Part shown: positions 1,356 to 34,829 of the stretch, in pieces | Layout: every line of letters starts with the position of its first letter | Position numbering within the stretch: position 1 is the stretch's first letter | Sequence record: DRR378314_2384 | Direction: 5' to 3' (one strand) | DNA length: 34,829 nucleotides | Program-made: the position numbers and the translations under genes | Notes under the pieces: generated by a model | Database searches by the model: none | The model's input: the letters and a program-made list of their open reading frames with translations, nothing else | Told to the model about the DNA's origin: nothing

Positions 1356-3404
1356 TTACCGGAAACTCTGCAACAGGGTATTGAACAAATCCTGGGCTAC
1401 GCTCACCACCTGGGCGGACGCGTTATAGGCGGCCTGGTACTGGATCAGCTTGCCAGCCTCTTCGTCCAGGTTTACGCCTGAGACGGATTCCCGCTGGTTG
1501 GTGGACTGCTCCAGCAGCGTGCTACCAGCGTCTTTATCCAGTTGGCTCTGCCGGGTTTTCACACCAATATCTTCCACTAACCCTGCGTAGCCCTCGGCGA
1601 AACTCTGGCTGCCGTTGTTAAGAGTGTTCTCGGTACCCAACGCCGCCAGGAACTCGGCATTACGGTTGTCTGACACGCCGTCGGTGTTGTAATTGATGCT
1701 GAACGAATCCCCGGCCCTTGGGTTCCCAGAGATTTCGAACTGGAAGCCGAAATAATCCGGTGAGCGCGGGTCCTCGGTGAACAGCTTGTTGGACTGACCG
1801 GGCTGGAACACATTAACCGGAGGGACGGCTGCGGCATCCCCAGCCTGCAGGACCGTGTTCGTGTTGGCGTCGACAATGTCATAGACAAGCTGGCCGCCAT
1901 CATCACGGAACTGAATATCCAGCGGTGGGTCCAGTTGCCCGTCCTGTCGGAAATTGCCCAGCAGGGAGTTGGTAAACGGGTCCCTGACATCCAGCATCTT
2001 GCCCTGGTTGATCGTGGCATCCCCGGTATTACTGGCAGAACCTTCCGCCCTGACCGGGCTCGCAAATGCCAGGTCCTCTTCGCGGCTGACTTCCAGGCCG
2101 ATATTGGCTGCTGCATTGCGTGTCGGCTCAATCAGGAACTTGTCGCCAGCGTTGAAGGTGCCACCTTCAATACGGATATTGAATCCAGGCATGGAAATCT
2201 CGGACTGTACCGGGTCCGGCAGGCGGCCCTGATTGACCACCTCCCCAGTGGCACGGTCAACGAGCTCGAAATTGCGTCCATCACCGCCAAACTGCAGCGA
2301 CCAGCTACCCGCGGGAAGATCAGAGGTGTCGATGATTTCAACCGCTAGCTGAGCGTCTCGCGGCGCACCGTTGTTGGCATTGGCGATCACCCGGCCGCTC
2401 TGGGCCGCCGGCGAGTTGATGTTGCTGAAGAACAGGCCGCCCAGATCGCCCTCAAGATCCATACCGATTTCATGTTGGTGGTTGAGGGTTTCGGATAAGG
2501 CGAGCGCAACCCGACCAAGTTCTGCAAAGGCAGGCTGCAGGGCTTCGGATTCGAATCGTCGCAGGCCACCGAGCTTGCCGCCGTTGACCTGGCTGTCCAC
2601 GTTCAACGTCCGGCCACCCGTGGTAAGGGTGAACTCCAGGGTGGTCGGGTCTTCGGCATTGTCACGGGTACCCAATTGCGCCGCCCTGTCACCCACAACC
2701 AACGCCTGGCCATTGCGCAGCGATACATTCACCTGGCTGCCTTCGGCCTGGACCACACTGATGTTGACCAGCTCAGACAGCTCACGGAGTTTTTCGTCGC
2801 GCTTGTCCAGCAACTCGTTGGGTTCACGGCCCTGAGCCAGCCCTGGCGATTCCGAGATCGCAAGGTTAAGCTCTGCGATGCTTTTCAGCAGCGTGTTGGC
2901 ATCCTTGACGCCCTGCTCCATCTGCGTCTTGACGGATTCCCGCTGTTGAATGAATTCCTGGTTGAGGGCTTCAAAGCGGTTCACCACCTGCTGCGCCTCA
3001 CTCAGCACCAGCTGCCTTTGGGGCAACGATGCCGGGTCCTCGGCAGCGTTCTGCAAACTGGCAAAGAAGTTGTTCAGGGCGTTACTCAGGCCGGTGGACT
3101 CGCCACCCAGCAGGTTATCCAGGCGCGACAACTCCGAATTCAAGGCTTCCTGCTCACCAAACAGCGAGCTGTCTTCCCGCACCTGCTGCGTGAGGTACTC
3201 GTTCGCCAAGCGCCGAATGTTGGTCACGTTTACGCCGGTACCAATCGAACCCGCACCCGTGCGCTGGGCCGACTGGGTTTCAAACTGCACTTCCTGCCGG
3301 CTGTAGCCAGGTGTATTGGCGTTGGTGATGTTGTTACCGGTGGTGTTCAGCGCCGCCTGGTGCCCGAGGATACCGGTCAGACCAATATTGATGAGCCCTG
3401 CCAT
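1356..3404 (-). CDS. flgK: Flagellar hook-associated protein 1
   Basis: LNTTGNNITNANTPGYSRQ at N-term; SGVNLDEEAGKLIQYQAAYNASAQV at C-term. Confidence 0.96.
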   Translation of the reverse strand: MAGLINIGLTGILGHQAALNTTGNNITNANTPGYSRQEVQFETQSAQRTGAGSIGTGVNVTNIRRLANEYLTQQVREDSSLFGEQEALNSELSRLDNLLGGESTGLSNALNNFFASLQNAAEDPASLPQRQLVLSEAQQVVNRFEALNQEFIQQRESVKTQMEQGVKDANTLLKSIAELNLAISESPGLAQGREPNELLDKRDEKLRELSELVNISVVQAEGSQVNVSLRNGQALVVGDRAAQLGTRDNAEDPTTLEFTLTTGGRTLNVDSQVNGGKLGGLRRFESEALQPAFAELGRVALALSETLNHQHEIGMDLEGDLGGLFFSNINSPAAQSGRVIANANNGAPRDAQLAVEIIDTSDLPAGSWSLQFGGDGRNFELVDRATGEVVNQGRLPDPVQSEISMPGFNIRIEGGTFNAGDKFLIEPTRNAAANIGLEVSREEDLAFASPVRAEGSASNTGDATINQGKMLDVRDPFTNSLLGNFRQDGQLDPPLDIQFRDDGGQLVYDIVDANTNTVLQAGDAAAVPPVNVFQPGQSNKLFTEDPRSPDYFGFQFEISGNPRAGDSFSINYNTDGVSDNRNAEFLAALGTENTLNNGSQSFAEGYAGLVEDIGVKTRQSQLDKDAGSTLLEQSTNQRESVSGVNLDEEAGKLIQYQAAYNASAQVVSVAQDLFNTLLQSFR

Positions 3405-25736: not shown

Positions 25737-26034
25737 GGACCTTCCTTGCGTTGTGTTTTTTTGAGTTATCGGTGTTTTTATTATGTAAGGGCTGCACTGC
25801 ATTAGACTTTAGTAGCCTATTTCACCACAGCCGTCACCGTCAAAACGTGACGGAACTAAAACTATTCCACTTCACATGTATTTTTGGCCGGCATACCGCC
25901 GCGGGAATCCCTGTAAAAGGTACCTTCCCTTACCCATCAATCCAATAGCCTGTGATAAACTCCCGCCCCGTTATTAAACGCGCGTTCGATCTCCCGGCGC
26001 GCCAAACAGTCTGAACAAACCCGGAGACCGGTTT

Positions 26035-27021
26035 ATGGCCAACAAGATTCTGCGCACGCTGATCGGCACCGCCCTGCTGGCAATGGCGGCGATTTCACCC
26101 GCCATTGCACAGAGTGACGAACAGCGGGTAGTCGCCATCACCCAGATTGTGGAGCATCCCGCCCTGGATGCTGTCTACCAGGGCGTCAGGGACGAACTGG
26201 AAGCACAGGGATACAAAGACGGCGAACAGGTTCGCATCATGCACGAAAGCGCCCAGGGCAACGCCGCCATCGCGTCACAGATTGCCCGCAAATTCGTGGG
26301 TGAAGGCCCGGACGTGATCGTGGCCATCGCCACCCCCTCCGCACAGACCATGGCAGCCGCCGCCCGACAGACCCCGGTGGTCTTCTCTGCCGTGACCGAC
26401 CCGGTCGGCGCCAAACTGGTGAAGAGCCTGAAGGCGCCCGGCGCCAACATCACCGGCGTGACCGACATGCTGCCCATCGAACGCCACCTAGACCTGCTTG
26501 AACGCGTCGTGCCAGACGCCAAGCGCATTGGCACCGTGTACAACCCCGGTGAAGCCAACGCCGTCGCGCTGGTAGAGCTGCTTGAAGAACGCCTGCAGGC
26601 CCGCGATATGGAACTGGTAAAAGCCGCCGCCACCAAGACCTCCGAAGTGCTTGGCGCCGCCCGCTCCCTGGTCGGCAAAGCCGACGCCATCTACCTGACC
26701 ACCGACAACACCGTGATCAGCGCCGTGGAAGCGGTCATTTCCGTGGGCGAGCGTGCCAGCATTCCCGTCTTTGCCGCGGACACCGCCACCGTCGGCCGTG
26801 GCGCCGTTGCCGCCCTTGGCTTCGACTACTACGACCACGGCCGCCAGACCGGCGCCATGGTGGCCCGCATCCTTGAAGGTGCCAACCCCGGTGACATGGA
26901 CGTGGAATCCGTGGACACCCTGGAACTGTTCGTGAACCCCGCTGCCGCAGAGCGTATGGGCATTACCCTGTCCGACGACCTGATCAGCGACGCGAAAAAA
27001 GTCGTAAACAGCGACAAGTAA
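26035..27021 (+). CDS. ABC transporter substrate-binding protein (ABC_sub_bind family, aromatic amino acid-like)
   Basis: Signal peptide; ITQIVEHPALD, IATPSAQ, PVVFSAVTDP, GANITGVTD. Confidence 0.88.
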   Translation: MANKILRTLIGTALLAMAAISPAIAQSDEQRVVAITQIVEHPALDAVYQGVRDELEAQGYKDGEQVRIMHESAQGNAAIASQIARKFVGEGPDVIVAIATPSAQTMAAAARQTPVVFSAVTDPVGAKLVKSLKAPGANITGVTDMLPIERHLDLLERVVPDAKRIGTVYNPGEANAVALVELLEERLQARDMELVKAAATKTSEVLGAARSLVGKADAIYLTTDNTVISAVEAVISVGERASIPVFAADTATVGRGAVAALGFDYYDHGRQTGAMVARILEGANPGDMDVESVDTLELFVNPAAAERMGITLSDDLISDAKKVVNSDK

Positions 27022-27031
27022 CCCACTGTTA

Positions 27032-27061
27032 GCGGGCGGCCTCACAAGGGCTGCCCGTTTT
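27032..27061 (+). terminator. Intra-operon hairpin (terminator or mRNA stabiliser)
   Basis: GCGGGCGGCC...GGCTGCCCGT followed by TTT. Confidence 0.6.
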
Positions 27062-27082
27062 CATTTACGGTGACCCTATCCC

Positions 27083-27985
27083 ATGCTTAGTAATATTGCC
27101 TTTTACGGCGCCATTGAAACCGGCCTGATCTACGGGCTGGTGGCCTTCGGTATCTACCTTTCCTTTCGCGTACTCGACTTCCCGGACCTGACCGTGGATG
27201 GCAGCTTCCCCCTCGGCGCTGCCGTGGCAGCCGTCCTCATCATCGAAGGCGTTAATCCCTGGCTGGCCACCGGCGCCGCCGTGATTGCCGGCATGGGGGC
27301 CGGTGCGGTAACCGCCCTGCTGAACGTCAAGCTCAACATCCTTAACCTGTTGGCGTCCATCCTCACCATGATTGCGCTGTATTCGGTGAACCTGCGCATC
27401 ATGGGCCGACCCAACATCGCCCTGCTTACCGAGGAAACCGTACTCACACCCTGGTACGACCTCGGCCTGGCCTACCATCAGGTGCCGGTTCTGTTGTTCA
27501 TCATCGTGGTCATGGTGAGCTTGTTTCTGCTGTGGCGCTTCATGAAATCCGAAACCGGGCTGGCCATGCGCGCCACCGGCGCCAATCCACGAATGGCCCG
27601 CGCCCAGGGCATCGCCACCGGAGCCATGATTGTGCTGGGGGTTGCCGTCTCCAACGGTTTGGTAGGCCTCGCCGGTGCCCTGTTCGCCCAGAGCCAGGGC
27701 GCTGCCGACGTCACCATGGGCGTGGGCGTGATCGTTATCGGCCTGGCCTCGCTGATCGGTGGTGAAGCCGTGCTCACACCGTCTACCGTGCTTCGCGCCC
27801 TGATTGCCTGTGTGATCGGTGCCATTGTCTACCGCCTGGCCATCGCCCTGGCGCTGAACGCAGACTTCCTGGGTCTACAGGCCCAGGACCTGAACCTGAT
27901 CACCGCTGTGCTGGTCACGCTGGCCATTGTTCTGCCCGGTGTTCGCACATCCGTTGCCGCGCGGTTTACCCGCAAAAAGGCCTGA
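27083..27985 (+). CDS. ABC transporter permease (BPD_transp_2 type)
   Basis: FRVLDFPDLTVDGSFPLG, GLAMRATGAN, GLASLIGGEA. Confidence 0.9.
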   Translation: MLSNIAFYGAIETGLIYGLVAFGIYLSFRVLDFPDLTVDGSFPLGAAVAAVLIIEGVNPWLATGAAVIAGMGAGAVTALLNVKLNILNLLASILTMIALYSVNLRIMGRPNIALLTEETVLTPWYDLGLAYHQVPVLLFIIVVMVSLFLLWRFMKSETGLAMRATGANPRMARAQGIATGAMIVLGVAVSNGLVGLAGALFAQSQGAADVTMGVGVIVIGLASLIGGEAVLTPSTVLRALIACVIGAIVYRLAIALALNADFLGLQAQDLNLITAVLVTLAIVLPGVRTSVAARFTRKKA

Positions 27986-27994
27986 GGAGGACGC

Positions 27995-28789
27995 ATGATT
28001 ACAGCAACCGACCTGACCCTCACCTTCGGCAAGGGCACACCGCTTGAAAACCCGGCCCTCCGGGGCATGAGCCTGACCGTCAACCAGGGCGAATTCGTCA
28101 CCGTGATTGGCAGTAACGGCGCCGGAAAATCCACCTTTCTCAACGCCCTCGCCGGCGAGGTGATGGTGGACAGCGGCAACATCATCGTCGACAACCAGGA
28201 CGTGACAAAGCTGCCCACCTATAAACGGGCCGGCCGGGTCGCCCGCGTATTCCAGGACCCACTGGCAGGCACCTGCGAAGGCCTGACCATTGAGGAAAAC
28301 CTGTCACTGGCCATCAAGCGCGGCCAGCGCCGTGGCCTGAGCGCGGCGGTCAAAGCGCGCTATCAGGACCAGTTCAAGTCCAGCCTGGCCTCCCTGAATC
28401 TGGGCCTGGAAAACCGCCTGGGCGACAAAATGGGTCTGCTTTCCGGCGGCCAGCGCCAGGCTGTCAGCCTGCTGATGGCCAGCCTGACACCCTCCGCCAT
28501 CCTGCTGCTGGATGAGCACACCGCCGCGTTGGACCCGAAAACCGCGTCCTTCGTGCTGGACCTGACCACGCAGATCATCGAAGAGCAGAAGCTCACCGCG
28601 CTGATGGTCACCCACAGCATGAAACAGGCGCTGGAAGTCGGCGACCGCACGGTGATGTTGCATCAGGGCCAGGTGGTGTTCGATATCGCCGGCCAGGAGC
28701 GGGAAGGACTGGAAGTGAAAGACCTGCTGGAACTGTTCGAGAAACAACGCGGGCTCGAAATCACCGATGACAGCCTGCTGCTGGGCTGA
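27995..28789 (+). CDS. ABC transporter ATP-binding protein
   Basis: GSNGAGKST, LSGGQRQ, LLLDEHTAALDP. Confidence 0.92.
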   Translation: MITATDLTLTFGKGTPLENPALRGMSLTVNQGEFVTVIGSNGAGKSTFLNALAGEVMVDSGNIIVDNQDVTKLPTYKRAGRVARVFQDPLAGTCEGLTIEENLSLAIKRGQRRGLSAAVKARYQDQFKSSLASLNLGLENRLGDKMGLLSGGQRQAVSLLMASLTPSAILLLDEHTAALDPKTASFVLDLTTQIIEEQKLTALMVTHSMKQALEVGDRTVMLHQGQVVFDIAGQEREGLEVKDLLELFEKQRGLEITDDSLLLG

Positions 28790-28806
28790 TTACGTTCGGC
28801 AAACCC

Positions 28807-28837
28807 GTCTGCGGGGCACCTTGCATGCCCCGCAGAC
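28807..28837. terminator. Perfect 12-bp hairpin between convergent genes
   Basis: GTCTGCGGGGCA-N7-TGCCCCGCAGAC; no U-tract on either side. Confidence 0.55.
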
Positions 28838-28847
28838 AGTCTGGTCA

Positions 28848-29657
28848 CTAGTGACCGTACACCCGCATCTGGGTGTTGGTGATCGCCAGGTCATCAATGA
28901 AGATCTGGCCGATCGAGGCCTGCCCCACAATCACCTCCTGCATACCGATATCCGCCGCAAAGCTGGGCATATCGATCGCCAGGGAGGAACCACCGTCGGC
29001 ACGCTGGCCGTTGTAGATGTACAGGTCCACTTCCGCGAACAGGTCCAACACGCTCGGGAAGGTCTGGTCGTAGTCCGCACCGGTCAGTGAAAGGCCACGA
29101 ATGCCCACCGCCGCAAACGGCACATCGAAATCCATCACTTCAATGGCGAACGCCGAACGCAGCCGCATGACGTCAGTGTCTGTATCGATGTGGATAGAGC
29201 CACGCCCCAACACACCCTCAATGAACAGGTTGTCCATCAGCGCCGTGTTCTGGCCGCCCTGCCCCCACAGTTCCCACGCACCGGAGGTTACCCGGAAATC
29301 AATGGCGTTGAAGTATTGCGGGCGGATATTGATCGCCGCATCACCGTCGGCAAGCACGTCAATGTCGATACGGATGTTGTCCAGCAGGTCATTGGAGTCC
29401 GGCCCACCCAGGCCGTTGAAGCCAAAGAAGTCCGTTCGTTCCGCACCGCCGATACTGATGTCGCTCACCGTCAACGACCCTTCGTCGGTGTAGATAAAGC
29501 GGTCCATATTGATCTTGGTTTCAAGCTCAATGGACACACCGGCCTGGCCGGTGATGTTCCCCATCACGCTGTCATCCAGCATTTCTATGTCTGCCATTGC
29601 GGCAGCAGGTAACCCTGCGACGCCCAGCGCAAGCAGTGTTCGTTTCAGGCCTTTCAT
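28848..29657 (-). CDS. Secreted DUF6160 / FilA-like protein
   Basis: Signal peptide, then MLDDSVMGNITGQAGVSIEL; C-term IGQIFIDDLAITNTQMRVYGH. Confidence 0.8.
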   Translation of the reverse strand: MKGLKRTLLALGVAGLPAAAMADIEMLDDSVMGNITGQAGVSIELETKINMDRFIYTDEGSLTVSDISIGGAERTDFFGFNGLGGPDSNDLLDNIRIDIDVLADGDAAINIRPQYFNAIDFRVTSGAWELWGQGGQNTALMDNLFIEGVLGRGSIHIDTDTDVMRLRSAFAIEVMDFDVPFAAVGIRGLSLTGADYDQTFPSVLDLFAEVDLYIYNGQRADGGSSLAIDMPSFAADIGMQEVIVGQASIGQIFIDDLAITNTQMRVYGH

Positions 29658-29818
29658 TATTATGTTCCTTTTATAGTCGTTTTCACTTCCTGTGGGCCAC
29701 TACCTCGTACGACGCCACATCACTACTTTAGCGACAGGTACAAAACGGGTACGTGCATCGTTCACATTTAACTGACTTTATGAACTTTTTTTCAGGTTTT
29801 TCGCTGCACAGTTTTTGA

Positions 29819-29834
29819 CCACAACATCTAGTGG
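29819..29834. promoter_or_regulatory. NrdR box 1
   Basis: CCACAACATCTAGTGG versus consensus acaCwAtATaTwGtgt. Confidence 0.75.
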
Positions 29835-29920
29835 TTTCCAGTAAAACGCCTCAAGACGGCGTTTCTGCGGGCATTTCAGGAGTTTCAAGCATTCATCCAT
29901 TGATTTTCTTTCGCTATGAG

Positions 29921-29999
29921 CCGCAATCTATAGTTGTCTTCTTATTCACAGACCACTATATCCTGTTATACTCATTCCATATTCACCCATATATAGGGT
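29921..29999. promoter_or_regulatory. Three tandem NrdR boxes over the putative nrdJ promoter
   Basis: CCGCAATCTATAGTTG (29921), CCACTATATCCTGTTA (29953) and CACCCATATATAGGGT (29984), spaced 32 and 31 bp; TTGTCT-N17-TATATC overlaps them. Confidence 0.75.
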
Positions 30000-30108
30000 T
30001 TGCTCGGCCCGCCCACCACAAGCGGCGTACCAGGGAACCACGCGGGTGACCATCTTTCCTGAAAACCCGCTGCTGCGCCCTTTCCGGGTGGGCTGCGGGT
30101 TTAGAAAA

Positions 30109-30124
30109 ACACCAGATCTAGTGT
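30109..30124. promoter_or_regulatory. NrdR box 5 (in the leader)
   Basis: ACACCAGATCTAGTGT. Confidence 0.7.
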
Positions 30125-30243
30125 TTCACCGGATCTGAAGCATAACGGCCTTCCAGGCCGAGACATCTTAACGACACATGGGGTATGGCCGGCTGCGATT
30201 TGCAGCGGCCATCAAAAGACATACCGGACATCCGAGGGTGGCA

Positions 30244-32382
30244 ATGAACGCTAAAGCACAGGCAGTGATAACAACAATTCCAATGCAGGAAGCTTCGCTG
30301 GACATCTGGAACAGCAAGTACCAACTTAAAACCAAGACCGGCGAACCCGTCGATAAGGACATCGAAGCGACCTACGAGCGCGTTGCCACTGCCCTTTCCG
30401 AAGTGGAAAACAAAGCCAACCGTGCCAAGCACAAGAAAGAATTCGTCTGGGCCCTGCGCCACGGTGCCATCCCCGCTGGCCGCATTACCTCCAACGCCGG
30501 CGCGGAAGCCCACAAACCAGCCACGTCCACCATCAACTGCACCGTGTCTGGCTCCGTTCAGGACTCCATGAACGACATCCTGGAGAAAAACCACGAAGCC
30601 GGCCTCACCCTCAAAGCCGGTTGCGGTATTGGTTATGAATTCTCCACCCTGCGCCCCCGGGGTGCCTACGTTGCCGGTGCGGGTGCCACCACCTCCGGCC
30701 CGCTGTCGTTCATGGATATCTTCGACCGCATGTGCTTCACCGTGTCTTCCGCCGGTGGCCGCCGTGGTGCGCAGATGGCCACTTTCGACGTGCACCACCC
30801 GGACGTGATCGACTTCATCCAGGCCAAGCGTGAAGACGGCCGCCTGCGCCAGTTCAACCTGTCCCTGTTGATCACCGAAGACTTCATCGAAGCCGTGCGC
30901 AACGGCGACGACTGGCACCTGTCCTTTCCCGTCACTGAAAAAGAAGTGGAAGACGAAGGCCTGGACCTGTCCGACGAAACCCAGTTTGTGTACCGCGACT
31001 TCCCGATCCAGAAAGGTTACGTGGTCAATGGCGAAGGCAAGGTTGCGTGCCGCATCTACCGCACCCTGAAAGCCCAGTTCATCTGGGACACCATCATGAC
31101 CAGCACCTACGACTACGCCGAGCCAGGGTTCATCCTGATCGACAAGGTCAACCAGATGAACAACAACTGGTTCTGCGAAGACATCCGCGCCACCAACCCC
31201 TGTGGCGAGCAGCCCCTGCCCCCGTACGGCAGCTGCCTGCTGGGCTCTGTGAACCTGACCATGTTCGTGGACTACCCGTTCACCGACAAGGCCAGCTTCA
31301 ACTATGAGAAGTACCGCAAAGTTGTGGGTATCTTCACCCGCATGCTGGACAACGTAGTGGAAATCAATGGCCTGCCGCTGGAAGAGCAGCGCCACGAAAT
31401 CACCTACAAGCGCCGCCACGGCATGGGCATCCTCGGCCTGGGTTCCACCCTCGCCATGCTGCGTATGCCTTACGGCTCGTCCGAATCCGTGCAGTTTACC
31501 GAGGAAGTCGTACGTGAAATGGCCGTGGAAGGCTGGCGCCAGTCCCTGGCCCTGGCCGACGAAAAAGGCCCGGCGCCGATCATGAACGACGACTTTGAAG
31601 TTACCCCCAAGATGCTGACCAAGTGCCCTCAACTGTCCCAGGACGGCTACAAGCTGGGCGACAAGCTCAAGGGCAAGGTGCTGCACGCCAAGTACAGCAA
31701 GTACATGCAGCAGATCGCCGGCGTGGAGCCGGAGCTGATCGAGCAACTGGCCGAGAAAGGTGGCCGCTTCACGCACCACACCTCCATCGCGCCCACCGGC
31801 ACCATCAGCCTGTCACTGGCCAACAACGCCAGTAACGGCATCGAGCCGAGCTTCTCGCACCACTACGCGCGCAACATCATCCGCGAAGGTCGCAAGACCA
31901 AGGAAAAAGTCGACGTATTCTCCTTCGAGCTGCTGGCCTACCGCCACCTGGTCAACCCCGGTGCCATGCCCTTCTCCGAAGAAGAAGACAAGCGCCTGCC
32001 CCACTACTTCACCACGTCTGAAGACGTGACGCCGGCGCAGCACGTAGACATCCAGGCCGCGGCCCAACTGTGGGTGGACTCGTCCATCTCCAAGACCGCC
32101 AACGTGCCCCAGGACTTCGCGTATCCGGACTTCAAAGACATCTACATGTACGCCTACGACAAAGGCCTGAAGGGTTGCACCACCTTCCGCTTTAACCCGG
32201 AAGCCTTCCAGGGCGTGCTGGTTCAGGAGAAAGACCTGGAAAACACACTGTACGAATTCACCCTGGACGACGGCAGCAAGGTCACCCTCAAGGGCAACGA
32301 ACAGGTGGAGTACGACGGCGAGCTCCATAACGCCGCCAACCTGTTTGATGCGCTTAAAGAAGGCACCTACGGCAAATACTGA
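30244..32382 (+). CDS. nrdJa: Class II (adenosylcobalamin-dependent) ribonucleotide reductase, catalytic subunit
   Basis: PAGRITSNAG, TINCTVS, SAGGRRGAQM, ATNPCGEQPL, TSIAPTGTISL, GLKGCTTFR; likely start MNAKAQ at 30244. Confidence 0.95.
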   Translation: MNAKAQAVITTIPMQEASLDIWNSKYQLKTKTGEPVDKDIEATYERVATALSEVENKANRAKHKKEFVWALRHGAIPAGRITSNAGAEAHKPATSTINCTVSGSVQDSMNDILEKNHEAGLTLKAGCGIGYEFSTLRPRGAYVAGAGATTSGPLSFMDIFDRMCFTVSSAGGRRGAQMATFDVHHPDVIDFIQAKREDGRLRQFNLSLLITEDFIEAVRNGDDWHLSFPVTEKEVEDEGLDLSDETQFVYRDFPIQKGYVVNGEGKVACRIYRTLKAQFIWDTIMTSTYDYAEPGFILIDKVNQMNNNWFCEDIRATNPCGEQPLPPYGSCLLGSVNLTMFVDYPFTDKASFNYEKYRKVVGIFTRMLDNVVEINGLPLEEQRHEITYKRRHGMGILGLGSTLAMLRMPYGSSESVQFTEEVVREMAVEGWRQSLALADEKGPAPIMNDDFEVTPKMLTKCPQLSQDGYKLGDKLKGKVLHAKYSKYMQQIAGVEPELIEQLAEKGGRFTHHTSIAPTGTISLSLANNASNGIEPSFSHHYARNIIREGRKTKEKVDVFSFELLAYRHLVNPGAMPFSEEEDKRLPHYFTTSEDVTPAQHVDIQAAAQLWVDSSISKTANVPQDFAYPDFKDIYMYAYDKGLKGCTTFRFNPEAFQGVLVQEKDLENTLYEFTLDDGSKVTLKGNEQVEYDGELHNAANLFDALKEGTYGKY

Positions 32383-32410
32383 TCCCGGGAACCGACACAG
32401 GACAACGAAC

Positions 32411-33100
32411 ATGACCGTTAAAATCAGCAACAAAATCGTCGGCTACCGCGTAAAGAAAGCCGACCCCGAAGCAGCACAACCAGCCGCACAGCCGGAAACC
32501 AAACCGGTTGAGATGAACGAATACATCGAACGGCCGGACTTCCTGCTGGGCACCACCTACAAGATCAAACCGCCGGTGGCCGAGCACGCGATGTACATCA
32601 CGATTAACGACATCCTGCTCAACGAAGGCACCGACCACGAAAGCCGGCAGCCGTACGAAGTGTTCATCAACTCCAAGTCGATGGAACACTTCCAGTGGGT
32701 TATCGCCCTCACCCGCGTTGTCTCCGCCGTGTTCCGCAAAGGCGGCGACGTGACCTTCCTGGTGGAAGAACTGCGCAGCGTGTACGACCCCAACGGCGGC
32801 TACTTCAAGAAAGGCGGCGTGTTCATGCCCTCTCTCGTCGCCGAAATCGGCGCCGTGATCGAGAAGCACCTCAAGGCGATCGGCCTGATTGAAAGCGAGG
32901 AAATGAGCGAAGTCACCAAACGCATCCTCGCCGAAAAACGCGCCGAATTCGAAGCCAGCCACACCACGGCCACGAACGACGACAAAGCCGGCGACTACCC
33001 ACCCAACGCCACCATGTGCGGCAAGTGCAGCACCAAGGCGGTGATTGTGATGGATGGGTGTGCGACTTGCCTGTCTTGTGGCGATAGTAAGTGCGGTTGA
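32411..33100 (+). CDS. nrdJb: Class II ribonucleotide reductase small subunit (TSCPD domain + C-terminal Cys cluster)
   Basis: ERPDFLLGTTYKIK, YITINDI, CGKC...DGCATCLSCGDSKCG; start at ATG 32411. Confidence 0.93.
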   Translation: MTVKISNKIVGYRVKKADPEAAQPAAQPETKPVEMNEYIERPDFLLGTTYKIKPPVAEHAMYITINDILLNEGTDHESRQPYEVFINSKSMEHFQWVIALTRVVSAVFRKGGDVTFLVEELRSVYDPNGGYFKKGGVFMPSLVAEIGAVIEKHLKAIGLIESEEMSEVTKRILAEKRAEFEASHTTATNDDKAGDYPPNATMCGKCSTKAVIVMDGCATCLSCGDSKCG

Positions 33101-33126
33101 GGTGATTGACTGCGATGTGTGATGGG

Positions 33127-33161
33127 AAGGCCTGGAGTGTTAAAGCTTCGGGCCTTTTTTT
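33127..33161 (+). terminator. Intrinsic terminator of nrdJab
   Basis: AAGGCCTGGAG-N8-CTTCGGGCCTT followed by a T-run. Confidence 0.85.
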
Positions 33162-33299
33162 GTTTTGGGGGATGGGATAGTGAGAAACCAGCTAGAACAC
33201 AAGACCTGTGAATCTCCCAGGGCACCCCCTTCACTAGCGATCGAGTTGCTCGCGCTCGTGAGTTCCAAGCGTAATGTTTTATGTGCCTAAAATAAAGCA

Positions 33300-34691
33300 A
33301 TGAAACCTATAAAAGCCAAATATACTGAAATTGTCTTACTGCTAGCTAGGTTGATCCCTTGGATCTTTCCTAAGTGGCTTCGATTTATTGCAAAGAGCTA
33401 TTCTCGAAAAGAACGAGAGTCAATCCAGCACCTATATGAAAAGGAGGATCGAATAAAGTCTGTCAGTCTTTTTGACGGAAGCTTCAAATGGAAAGCTATT
33501 AGCGTAGTTTTAAAGATTGATCATGATGAGTTGGATTCAATTCGCCGATGGCTAAAGTCCAATGCGTCTCCAAGAGATTACAACCCTGATAGAGATGACG
33601 CCGTTTTTAAAAACAGGTATGACCATGATGGTGGGTTCAGGAATTTAGGTTGGATTCATTTTCACAGAGAAGATAGACTGACTTCCCTAATAAGGATGGA
33701 GGAAGAAACAGAGTTTTGTGACTCTTGTTATGTGTCTTTGTCCAAGTATTCATATGGCATTAACTACTTGTCCTTATATTTCTTCCTTAAAGAATCCGCA
33801 ACAGAAATGGTCTGCAACGTGAATGTTAGCGAGATAAAGAGGTACTACACTTTTGCGTCCGCAAACCCATTTTCACAGCAATTTAGAGCTATTCAGCATC
33901 ATAATAAACGAAACCTAGTTGAAGAACTCATAAATGAAAATATAAACAAGGTTTGCAGCGATGTAGGCAGTATGGCTAAAAAGGTCCTTAGTCTCTGGCG
34001 AATAACTAAGGATGAATCGAATTTAAGGCTAATTGCAGATATCTACCGAGATACTGATGAGCCGTATTTTATTGAAGTCGATGAAGGTGATGATGGCAGT
34101 CATGTTCACGTTTGTCGAAGAAATTTCGGCTTCTTTGATGAAAAATTAAGCCGTGATGATTCAGAACACTTCTTAAGTCGTCATGTGGTTGAGAAGAACG
34201 ATTTAGATGCGTTGTTTATAAAGAGCAAAAGCTTAGAGAAATTTGACCAGTTTGATAATTTTGCTAGGAAAGGGCTGACTCTTTACGACTCACACATATT
34301 TATATCAATGTTTATTGATGTGGCAAAACAACAAGTAGAGATTTCGAAGTATGCAAATTCAGCACTGTTGAAGAACTCAAACAAGGTTGAAAAAAACTAT
34401 GACATACTTTTCGAGTCCACCAATAAACTGGAATCTTTAAGGGAAAATATTTTGGCGATTCAGCAGGAAATTCCTCGTAGCTGTATGGAATCATACTCAG
34501 ATAGCGCAAAACGAATTGCAGAGCATAGACTCAAGCTTGCTGACAAACTAAAAGAATCTATAGATAACAGGCTGTCAAGCTTAAATAGTGAAATGCAGGT
34601 TCAAAACCTGAGATTTAATAGGAAGTATTCGTTGCTTGTCGGTCTTTTAATTATAATTCAGATCGCACTAGCAGCTTTAACAATAGACTAG
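33300..34691 (+). CDS. Hypothetical protein with C-terminal coiled coil and transmembrane helix
   Basis: 463-aa ORF in AT-rich DNA; helical stretch, then YSLLVGLLIIIQIALAALT; no family recognised. Confidence 0.85.
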   Translation: MKPIKAKYTEIVLLLARLIPWIFPKWLRFIAKSYSRKERESIQHLYEKEDRIKSVSLFDGSFKWKAISVVLKIDHDELDSIRRWLKSNASPRDYNPDRDDAVFKNRYDHDGGFRNLGWIHFHREDRLTSLIRMEEETEFCDSCYVSLSKYSYGINYLSLYFFLKESATEMVCNVNVSEIKRYYTFASANPFSQQFRAIQHHNKRNLVEELINENINKVCSDVGSMAKKVLSLWRITKDESNLRLIADIYRDTDEPYFIEVDEGDDGSHVHVCRRNFGFFDEKLSRDDSEHFLSRHVVEKNDLDALFIKSKSLEKFDQFDNFARKGLTLYDSHIFISMFIDVAKQQVEISKYANSALLKNSNKVEKNYDILFESTNKLESLRENILAIQQEIPRSCMESYSDSAKRIAEHRLKLADKLKESIDNRLSSLNSEMQVQNLRFNRKYSLLVGLLIIIQIALAALTID

Positions 34692-34774
34692 GGTGAGTTG
34701 GACGACAAGCAAGATTCTTTAGCTCTTAGGAAGAGCAGTCATGAGAGGGAACATAGCGCAGATGACAGAGACAA

Positions 34775-34800
34775 ACATAACAAGGCGCTGCTGTCGGACT
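34775..34800 (+). repeat. Left arm of an attC-like site (truncated)
   Basis: ACATAAC (inverse core, one mismatch to RYYYAAC) followed by AAGGCGCTGCTGTCGGAC; the complementary right arm is absent from the window. Confidence 0.65.
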
Positions 34801-34829
34801 TGGACTTCCCCCACTCTAATGGACACGCA
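34801..34829. mobile_element. Probable terminal inverted repeat of an IS3-family element
   Basis: TGGACTTCCCCCACTCTAATGGACA: starts with TG and has the C-tract/GGACA layout of IS3-family ends; no transposase is visible in the window. Confidence 0.5.

Follow-up and report, generated by a model that had tools for sequence, protein, structure and literature searches.

The region downstream of nrdJab

The stretch of DNA analysed here (sequence record DRR378314_2384, 34,829 nucleotides, hereafter the window) ends in an AT-rich segment that follows the genes nrdJa and nrdJb. Positions 33272 to 34829 (+ strand) of this segment very probably form an integron gene cassette captured directly downstream of the nrdJab terminator of a Marinobacter strain. 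The host is assigned to Marinobacter by sequence comparison, with an NrdJb that is 88–94% identical to Marinobacter proteins. The cassette belongs to a known kind of element, here carrying a rare, uncharacterised protein family. The explanation developed below, an altered integron cassette in Marinobacter that encodes an uncharacterised membrane protein with a possible role in defence, appears probable to us when taken as a whole.

The intrinsic terminator of nrdJab (33124..33169, + strand) consists of a hairpin and a T run at 33124–33159 and is the final DNA that is highly identical to sister Marinobacter genomes; blastn identity to six Marinobacter relatives stops at 33168–33181. The G+C content is 0.55–0.67 at 26000–33000 and 0.35–0.42 at 33200–34700, with approximately 0.38 for the cassette overall compared to approximately 0.6. 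The drop and the hairpin confirm the turn to AT-rich DNA behind the terminator, as noted in a preliminary description made from the letters of the window. Terminator and cassette are separated by a junction segment (33170..33270, no strand assigned) that contains no recognisable attC or attI site. Its positions 33182–33260 align weakly to the post-terminator DNA of the sister genomes.

The cassette begins within a degenerate left core site, GTAATGT (33271..33277, + strand), which carries an A at 33273 where the family reads G|TTATGT. This site is part of the 9-mer GTAATGTTT (33271–33279). The sole long open reading frame (ORF) of the AT-rich part (33300..34691, + strand, 463 amino acids in the ORF list) has its ATG 29 bases past the first base of this 9-mer, as previously described, and 28 bases lie between the cassette boundary and the ATG. 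It encodes a tail-anchored membrane protein, as judged from the ORF list, relatives, the ratio of nonsynonymous to synonymous substitution rates (dN/dS) and a structural model. The codons for a single transmembrane helix (residues 443–463) are found at 34626..34688 (+ strand), including the codon of an invariant Gln454 at 34659–34661. According to the homologue loci and the protein alignment, the TAG stop at 34689..34691 (+ strand) replaces a Trp codon of the family. The former tail-coding sequence (34692..34829, + strand) stays in frame and open to the window end, and its translation, GELDDKQDSLALRKSSHEREHSADDRDKHNK..., matches the tails of the relatives P0001 and P0002.

A second 9-mer, AAACATAAC, lies at 34773–34781 and is followed by AAGGCGCTGCTGTCGGAC. 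Here begins the first half of an attC site (34775..34829, + strand), in which R'' (ACATAAC, 34775–34781) is followed by a spacer, the L'' arm and the first bases of the loop, where the window stops. The cassette is therefore cut by the window end; in relatives its full length is approximately 1.55 kb, which is large for an integron cassette. The preliminary description had reported no intI, and a tblastn search of the 34.8-kb window with the Halomonas integron integrase (E ≤ 1e-3) likewise found none. An Rfam scan of positions 1–34829 at gathering thresholds returned 0 matches, including for the AT-rich leader upstream of nrdJa (29600–30150).

Homologous cassettes and their recombination sites

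For comparison, 18 homologue loci with 67–88% protein identity were used, five from genomes of species and 13 from metagenome contigs. The former are a Bacillota metagenome-assembled genome (MAG), Pseudoalteromonas prydzensis, Terasakiispira papahanaumokuakeensis, Halomonas organivorans (L004) and a Desulfobulbus MAG (L005). Nucleotide identity to the window is 84.7–86.3% for L001–L004 and 80.1% for L005, and the alignments start at 33254–33284 and end at 34692–34713. At the protein level, an identity of 83–88% is kept in Bacillota, Desulfobulbus and several lineages of Gammaproteobacteria; the protein spreads between phyla as a cassette.

In Halomonas organivorans the integron is complete: it has intI and an attI-like junction, and its array gives at least seven attC matches. 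Its integrase (321 amino acids, Phage_integrase and SAM_4 domains) faces a + strand array of short ORFs with attC-like palindromes between them, and the homologue is the seventh cassette of this array.

Integron integrases cut the folded bottom strand between the G and the TT of the R' core, hence cassettes start with TTRRRY. Among the 16 homologue loci with upstream DNA, 13 share the left boundary G|TTATGTTT (GTTATGTTT), and the upstream sequences diverge exactly at G|TTATG. The exceptions are L005 (GATATG), L032 (ATTATG) and L002, which has no recognisable site. In nine of the 16, an attC match ends exactly at the left boundary.

To the right of the gene, sites were located with an attC covariance model built from 15 aligned sites of the homologue loci, which replaced simpler scans that had given mostly false sites. 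The consensus fold shows the R''/R' and L''/L' helices with a bulge, and compensatory changes were found in 10 of 14 pairs. The model recovers three held-out attC sites with 66.6, 52.4 and 34.9 bits. A site follows the homologue in 12 of the 13 metagenome loci, all outside the training set, and in all five genome loci, four of which contributed training sites. In the remaining metagenome locus (L028), the attC is broken after approximately 36 bases (around 3075–3115) by unrelated DNA and gives no model match; this may reflect an insertion into the attC.

The Halomonas integron, the sites after the homologue in 12 of 13 metagenome loci and the divergence at G|TTATG strongly support the earlier proposal of an acquired cassette with no integrase in view. 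Furthermore, the window shows a single ORF with no promoter-like + strand site upstream, and the cassette recurs across arrays and hosts (18 loci, at least five named lineages), among them the intI-bearing integron of Halomonas. As for the 5' G|TT crossover of a GTTRRRY core, the position fits in the window but the triplet does not (GTAATGT). The preliminary description had regarded the GTT-to-GTA mismatch between the two 9-mers as expected, which the family contradicts, since GTA is a deviation from its GTT.

Several results obtained within the window itself speak against a cassette. The sole attC-model match has 11.5 bits at E 6.6, is cut at its 3' end and is not significant; with filters off, the site scores 2.1 bits. 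The weak score is explained by the window end, which leaves only 55 bases of the site. Thus, a check with an attC model, as suggested earlier, yielded complete sites in the relatives but only this truncated match in the window. Upstream of the gene, neither attC nor attI was detected in scans of 33100–34829 and 33238–33300, with filters on or off (noise ≤8 bits). The pair of 9-mers is by itself no better than chance: 33101–34829 contains 54 pairs of inverted 9-mers that have no more than one mismatch and are spaced 1000–1700 bases apart, compared to 30–61 in five shuffled sequences. The pair gains its meaning because both members coincide exactly with recombination sites of the homologous cassettes. 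From this comparison, and invisibly from the window alone, both 9-mers would be cassette boundaries. The earlier reading of the two as core sites is therefore kept with regard to the boundaries, while its argument from the pairing is lost and the downstream 9-mer turns out to be coding in the homologues.

Two further candidates upstream of the gene were rejected. The segment 33255–33271 resembles an L' arm by eye and might have been an attC remnant, but the model gives only noise there. A match of 12–13 bases between 33185–33197 and the coding sequence of homologues was attributed to chance.

The surroundings of the homologues provided some additional observations. The same 78-base attC (74.8–78.6 bits) lies upstream of the homologue in L001, L004 and L031, which come from different sources, and in these three loci two adjacent cassettes seem to travel together. 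The cassette directly after the Desulfobulbus homologue (L005:11582–12622) encodes a bSEFIR/TIR-domain protein (PADLOC E 1.4e-55, Pfam TIR_2). Cassettes with a GFA domain (PF04828) are found beside the Halomonas homologue (L004:11526–11975) and, by eye, in first position of a Marinobacter integron (L026, from approximately 1210). A 2026 preprint reports an integron-borne Gfa family conferring fosfomycin resistance (10.64898/2026.10.07.757220).

The encoded membrane protein

The protein has 33 relatives with 38–95% identity, most of which comprise 490–510 amino acids; the nearest one is 95% identical over the intact 463 codons. The family is small, with 89 clusters among 1.84 billion representatives, and was present in one of 401 sampled Gammaproteobacteria genomes, namely the starting Halomonas genome. 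A dN/dS of 0.09–0.12 against nine homologues points to strong purifying selection on the family. No longer or fused forms were found in the search, which is weak evidence. The family carries no name or accession; the literature was consulted for context only, and a relative could be among the cassettes screened in two preprints (10.1101/2024.07.02.601686; 10.1101/2024.07.02.601719). The ESM Atlas returned unnamed clusters, and the nearest named families, MJ1566_N and MJ0711_N at 0.77–0.85, serve as a lead only.

An AlphaFold model was obtained with a predicted local distance difference test score (pLDDT) of 92.2 and a predicted template modelling score of 0.88. It shows helices at 4–50, a mixed sheet-and-helix domain at 54–330 and helices at 332–356, 363–389 and 397–461. 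One hydrophobic segment is present (441–463), with the only 19-residue window of mean hydropathy above 1.6. Two arginines and a lysine stand just before the transmembrane helix and an acidic tail follows it; for this reason, the bulk of the protein is placed in the cytoplasm (N-in). From N to C terminus, the predicted build thus consists of short helices, a cytoplasmic alpha/beta domain of approximately 280 amino acids, a three-helix stalk and one C-terminal transmembrane helix. The confident model and the hydropathy scan bear out the soluble domain, helical stalk and terminal membrane helix of the preliminary description. Conservation within the family is highest at Gln454, in the middle of the membrane helix (60 of 60 aligned sequences, two gaps). 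Self-association of two full-length copies was scored at 0.00, which speaks neither for nor against an oligomer.

A Foldseek search with the whole model returned nothing at E ≤ 0.001; the top rows were CorA proteins with E ≥ 1.5e-3 and low template modelling scores. In VIA-align, CorA of C. jejuni (8zah_A) ranked first (Z 12.7, root mean square deviation 1.7, 108 residues over 110–436), followed by other CorA, Mrs2 and CmaX chains with Z 9.6–10.6 from the sheet to the transmembrane helix; values under approximately 13 are common for helical models, and the CorA scores are within that range. The remaining rows were three-helix bundles on 333–430. When the domain 51–331 was folded alone (pLDDT 93.8), the best Z was 5.2 with CorA not listed, and Foldseek again returned nothing at E ≤ 0.001. 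Similarly, a sequence profile search of the PDB found only designed helical proteins (E ≥ 0.095). According to these model-based comparisons, the soluble domain appears to have no recognisable relative among solved structures.

Membership in the CorA family (PF01544) was considered and rejected because a profile match, the GMN motif and a second transmembrane helix are all wanting. Specifically, hhalign against 20 CorA proteins gave a probability of 0.6% (E 0.1), PF01544 was absent in 62 family members at E up to 0.01, and the helix ends in LTID(W). Judging from the model, the protein would be built loosely like CorA without being a member of that family. With CorA, Mrs2 and ZntB, and with the CorA-type effector of type III CRISPR systems, it has in common the order of its parts (a cytoplasmic alpha/beta domain, a helical bundle and a long stalk helix into the membrane), and no PDB matches other than CorA-family chains extend over both sheet and stalk. 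It differs from these proteins in the absence of GMN, in having one transmembrane helix instead of two, in showing no sequence or profile similarity, in a soluble domain that by itself has no good match, and in lacking a neighbouring gene for a signalling enzyme. Two publications describe an effector of the CorA family in type III CRISPR defence (PMC10600005, PMC12255297).

Sister genomes, possible function and state of the window copy

The nrdJb locus was compared within 401 genomes of the order, of which 125 have an NrdJb match; the 12 best are 84–93% identical. In six of these 12, the DNA matches that of the window to the end of the terminator, after which each diverges in its own way, and an isolate contig that is more than 99% identical on nrdJb diverges after 33160. 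Accordingly, the gene is not conserved at this locus; conservation across the genus would have spoken against the proposed acquisition. Four of the six sister genomes have attC sites downstream of nrdJb in the same orientation, with best matches of 24–55 bits: L020 (54.6 and 47.6 bits), L022 (41.3 bits), L021 (35.2 and 18.8 bits) and L019 (24.2 and 12.3 bits, the latter at E 4.4). L023 has no attC-model match downstream of nrdJb, and L018 has only a 15-bit match 16 kb away.

The cassettes downstream of nrdJb in the sister genomes encode PycTM and PycC followed by attC, GajA and GajB followed by attC, a caspase-like protein, AbiU2 and a PDC-S60-like protein. At the same spot, L023, with no attC match, carries putAbiC and PDC-S08. 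In L020 (14865–19602), complete Pycsar and Gabija systems were observed, each as two genes and then an attC (47.6 and 54.6 bits), with no adjacent integrase.

Four of five sister genomes contain an integron integrase that scores above the curated cut-off, on another contig or more than 3 Mb away, and we infer that an integrase encoded elsewhere in the genome would act in trans on the cassettes at nrdJb. The first junction in three relatives reads CGCTGTTATGT or TCACTGTTATAT and resembles, by eye, the attI cores beside the integrases of these genomes and of Halomonas. In L006, L007, L010 and L020–L022, approximately 230 bases after the nrdJb terminator are conserved, with repeated CGTTATTACG and CGTAATAACG motifs and the end GCTGTTAT. 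This stretch, which by eye is like the attI regions of these genomes' integrases, may be an orphan attI. The nrdJb locus is a natural case for how an integrase acting in trans fills an array that lacks one.

The cassette in the window is comparable to those of arrays without an integrase, termed CALIN or SALIN in IntegronFinder, and to those inserted at attG sites. It shares with them a promoterless ORF, which in the family lies between a G|TT-type junction and an attC, and it is found in a complete integron elsewhere; the sister genomes have attC arrays at nrdJb and integrases encoded far away. It differs in that half of one attC is visible, in the GTA left site and in the switch of attC type at R''. 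By the definition given in one preprint (at least two attC sites and no integrase nearby; 10.1101/2024.07.02.601686), L020, L021 and L019 are CALINs with two attC matches each and intI elsewhere; the window shows one partial attC and no IntI in 34.8 kb. The term attG refers to genomic sites that receive cassette insertions (10.1101/2024.07.02.601719; PMC12901181).

Taking together neighbourhood, architecture, conservation and literature, a stand-alone, membrane-acting anti-phage effector is the most likely single function, which we propose tentatively and at somewhat less than even chances. In this scheme, a trigger perceived by the cytoplasmic domain would lead stalks and transmembrane helices to form an oligomer that renders the inner membrane leaky and so arrests the infected cell. 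The proposal draws on the defence cassettes that fill the nrdJb locus in sister genomes and adjoin one homologue (bSEFIR/TIR, L005). It also draws on two preprints reporting that defence systems are frequently encoded by integron cassettes and that many of these have transmembrane helices (10.1101/2024.07.02.601686; 10.1101/2024.07.02.601719). Because the cassette keeps 83–88% identity across distant hosts, host-specific partners would not be needed.

With the phage-defence cassettes of integrons (the chromosomal 'biobank' and the mobile BRiCs), the window cassette has in common a compact single gene, a transmembrane helix, no known domain and a place among defence cassettes; at approximately 1.55 kb it is larger than a typical cassette. 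With PycTM and the 2TM CBASS effectors it shares a C-terminal membrane helix, and such systems occupy the same locus in sister genomes. These effectors work with a partner cyclase, whereas the window protein stands alone, is far larger and has no PADLOC match to their models. A wider proposal combines a new class of single-gene anti-phage protein, i.e., a tail-anchored sensor-pore whose cytoplasmic domain has a novel fold and whose membrane helix holds the invariant glutamine, spread between phyla by integrons, with an orphan attI-like pad at nrdJb that is stocked in trans with complete systems, Pycsar and Gabija among them; as a whole we rate it as unlikely, albeit worth stating. The mobile pool of cassettes of unknown function is large, and many cassettes were recently shown to defend against phages. 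The present one is unusual in its conservation across distant bacteria, in a confidently modelled soluble domain with no solved match and in a site that collects complete defence systems in sister genomes. Owing to these three traits, it is a tangible candidate for a new membrane effector, and one that can be cloned.

The defence proposal also has results against it. Its link to defence is one of neighbourhood, and integron arrays hold many non-defence cassettes as well. PADLOC-DB 2.0 gave 0 families for the window protein at E up to 10. Pfam gave no PF01544 for it at E up to 10 and 0 useful matches in 62 members, and NCBIfam and PHROGs returned nothing beyond noise. No relative was found in phage or plasmid records by tblastn, or in viral contigs with a 14-sequence alignment. 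In addition, no sigma-70-like + strand site lies between the terminator and the ATG. Due to the upstream terminator and the lack of a visible promoter, expression is doubtful here, and the window copy may be silent.

These points bring up a genuine cassette whose product has a membrane role outside defence, for example as an ion channel, as a sensor of envelope stress or in some other niche function useful in many hosts. The CorA-type likeness, as the only match across both sheet and stalk (Z 12.7 for 8zah_A, 9.6–10.6 for the others), would fit a channel, and the blank PADLOC result is in line with this role. Moreover, a preprint states that most integron cassettes have unknown functions and that not all of them are defensive (10.1101/2024.07.02.601686). 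On the other hand, the hallmarks of CorA are wanting (GMN, the second helix, PF01544 in 62 members, a profile match above 0.6%), the alpha/beta domain alone does not retrieve CorA, and the cassettes at nrdJb and beside homologues are rich in defence genes. We therefore consider a non-defence role somewhat unlikely, and an anti-phage effector is retained as the function to be preferred.

The copy in the window differs from its relatives at both ends. At the left site, GTA stands in place of the GTT found in 13 of 16 relatives. At the position of the TAG (34689–34691), the homologue loci have TGG (16 of 18) or TTG (2 of 18) and in no case a stop. The ORF thus runs from 33300 to 34691 as originally described, but ends early compared to the family, in which the relatives run approximately 43 residues further. 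The frame after the TAG is open to 34829 and still resembles the tails of the closest relatives; consequently, the TGG-to-TAG change is recent. It removes only the variable tail of approximately 43 amino acids beyond the membrane helix. The tail is 0–135 residues long in the family, and three of 62 aligned proteins, including that of the window, stop at the helix, so the truncated product is within the family range. The ORFs of the relatives extend into their own attC sites, and in each homologue the downstream 9-mer is coding, specifying K-H-N of the tail.

From its sequence, the attC of the window appears to be a hybrid, of the family type to the first core site and of another attC type thereafter. 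It is identical to the family up to ...ACATAACAA and of the other type from 34784. Positions 34778–34799 match 22 of 22 bases of the first arm of the held-out Halomonas attC (L004:7698–7719; 66.6 bits), and the arm matches 20 of 21 bases of an attC at nrdJb in the sister Marinobacter genome L020. Contigs of two public runs, approximately 95% identical to the gene, depart from the window at 34779–34783 and continue with the family attC. R'' is not the usual crossover point of integrons. Possible origins of the switch at R'' are a microhomology deletion between neighbouring attC sites and recombination on the other strand.

In light of these changes, the copy could be a decaying, silent relic that is immobilised by a mutated left site, shortened by a nonsense codon and no longer transcribed. 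The GTA, the TAG in place of a sense codon in 18 of 18 relatives, the upstream terminator, the missing promoter-like site and the hybrid attC all agree with this, and the TAG could be inactivating. A relic is nevertheless improbable, given 463 intact codons that are 95% identical to the nearest relative, a dN/dS of approximately 0.1, a recent change with family-like sequence behind it, and the tail-less members among the 62 proteins. The changed left site and the hybrid attC may illustrate the way in which cassettes become immobile.

An assembly chimera, in which the assembler joined an AT-rich cassette to a Marinobacter contig, would account for the abrupt change in composition and for the window ending in a repeat-like site. 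None of the contigs of four public runs spans 33160–33267, with no run holding more than 20% of the sampled words, and the join of backbone and cassette is consequently unverified by reads, which again counts against our explanation. However, four of six sister genomes have attC-bounded cassettes at the same spot, one with the attC that matches at 20 of 21 bases, and no long repeat that could mislead an assembler was seen at the junction, so that a chimera is very improbable. Least credible of all is a foreign island brought in by a transposon, a phage or an integrative and conjugative element, with coincidental look-alikes of core sites: the 9-mer pair is indeed at chance level, but no transposase or phage gene is present here, no phage, plasmid or viral-contig relative was found, and the boundaries are recombination points in 13 of 16 and 12 of 13 independent loci.

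Finally, assemblies seem prone to stop within these arrays: sequence past nrdJb extends for 1.4 kb in the L019 contig, for 4.8 kb in that of L021 and for 1.7 kb in the window, whose last base falls inside an attC.

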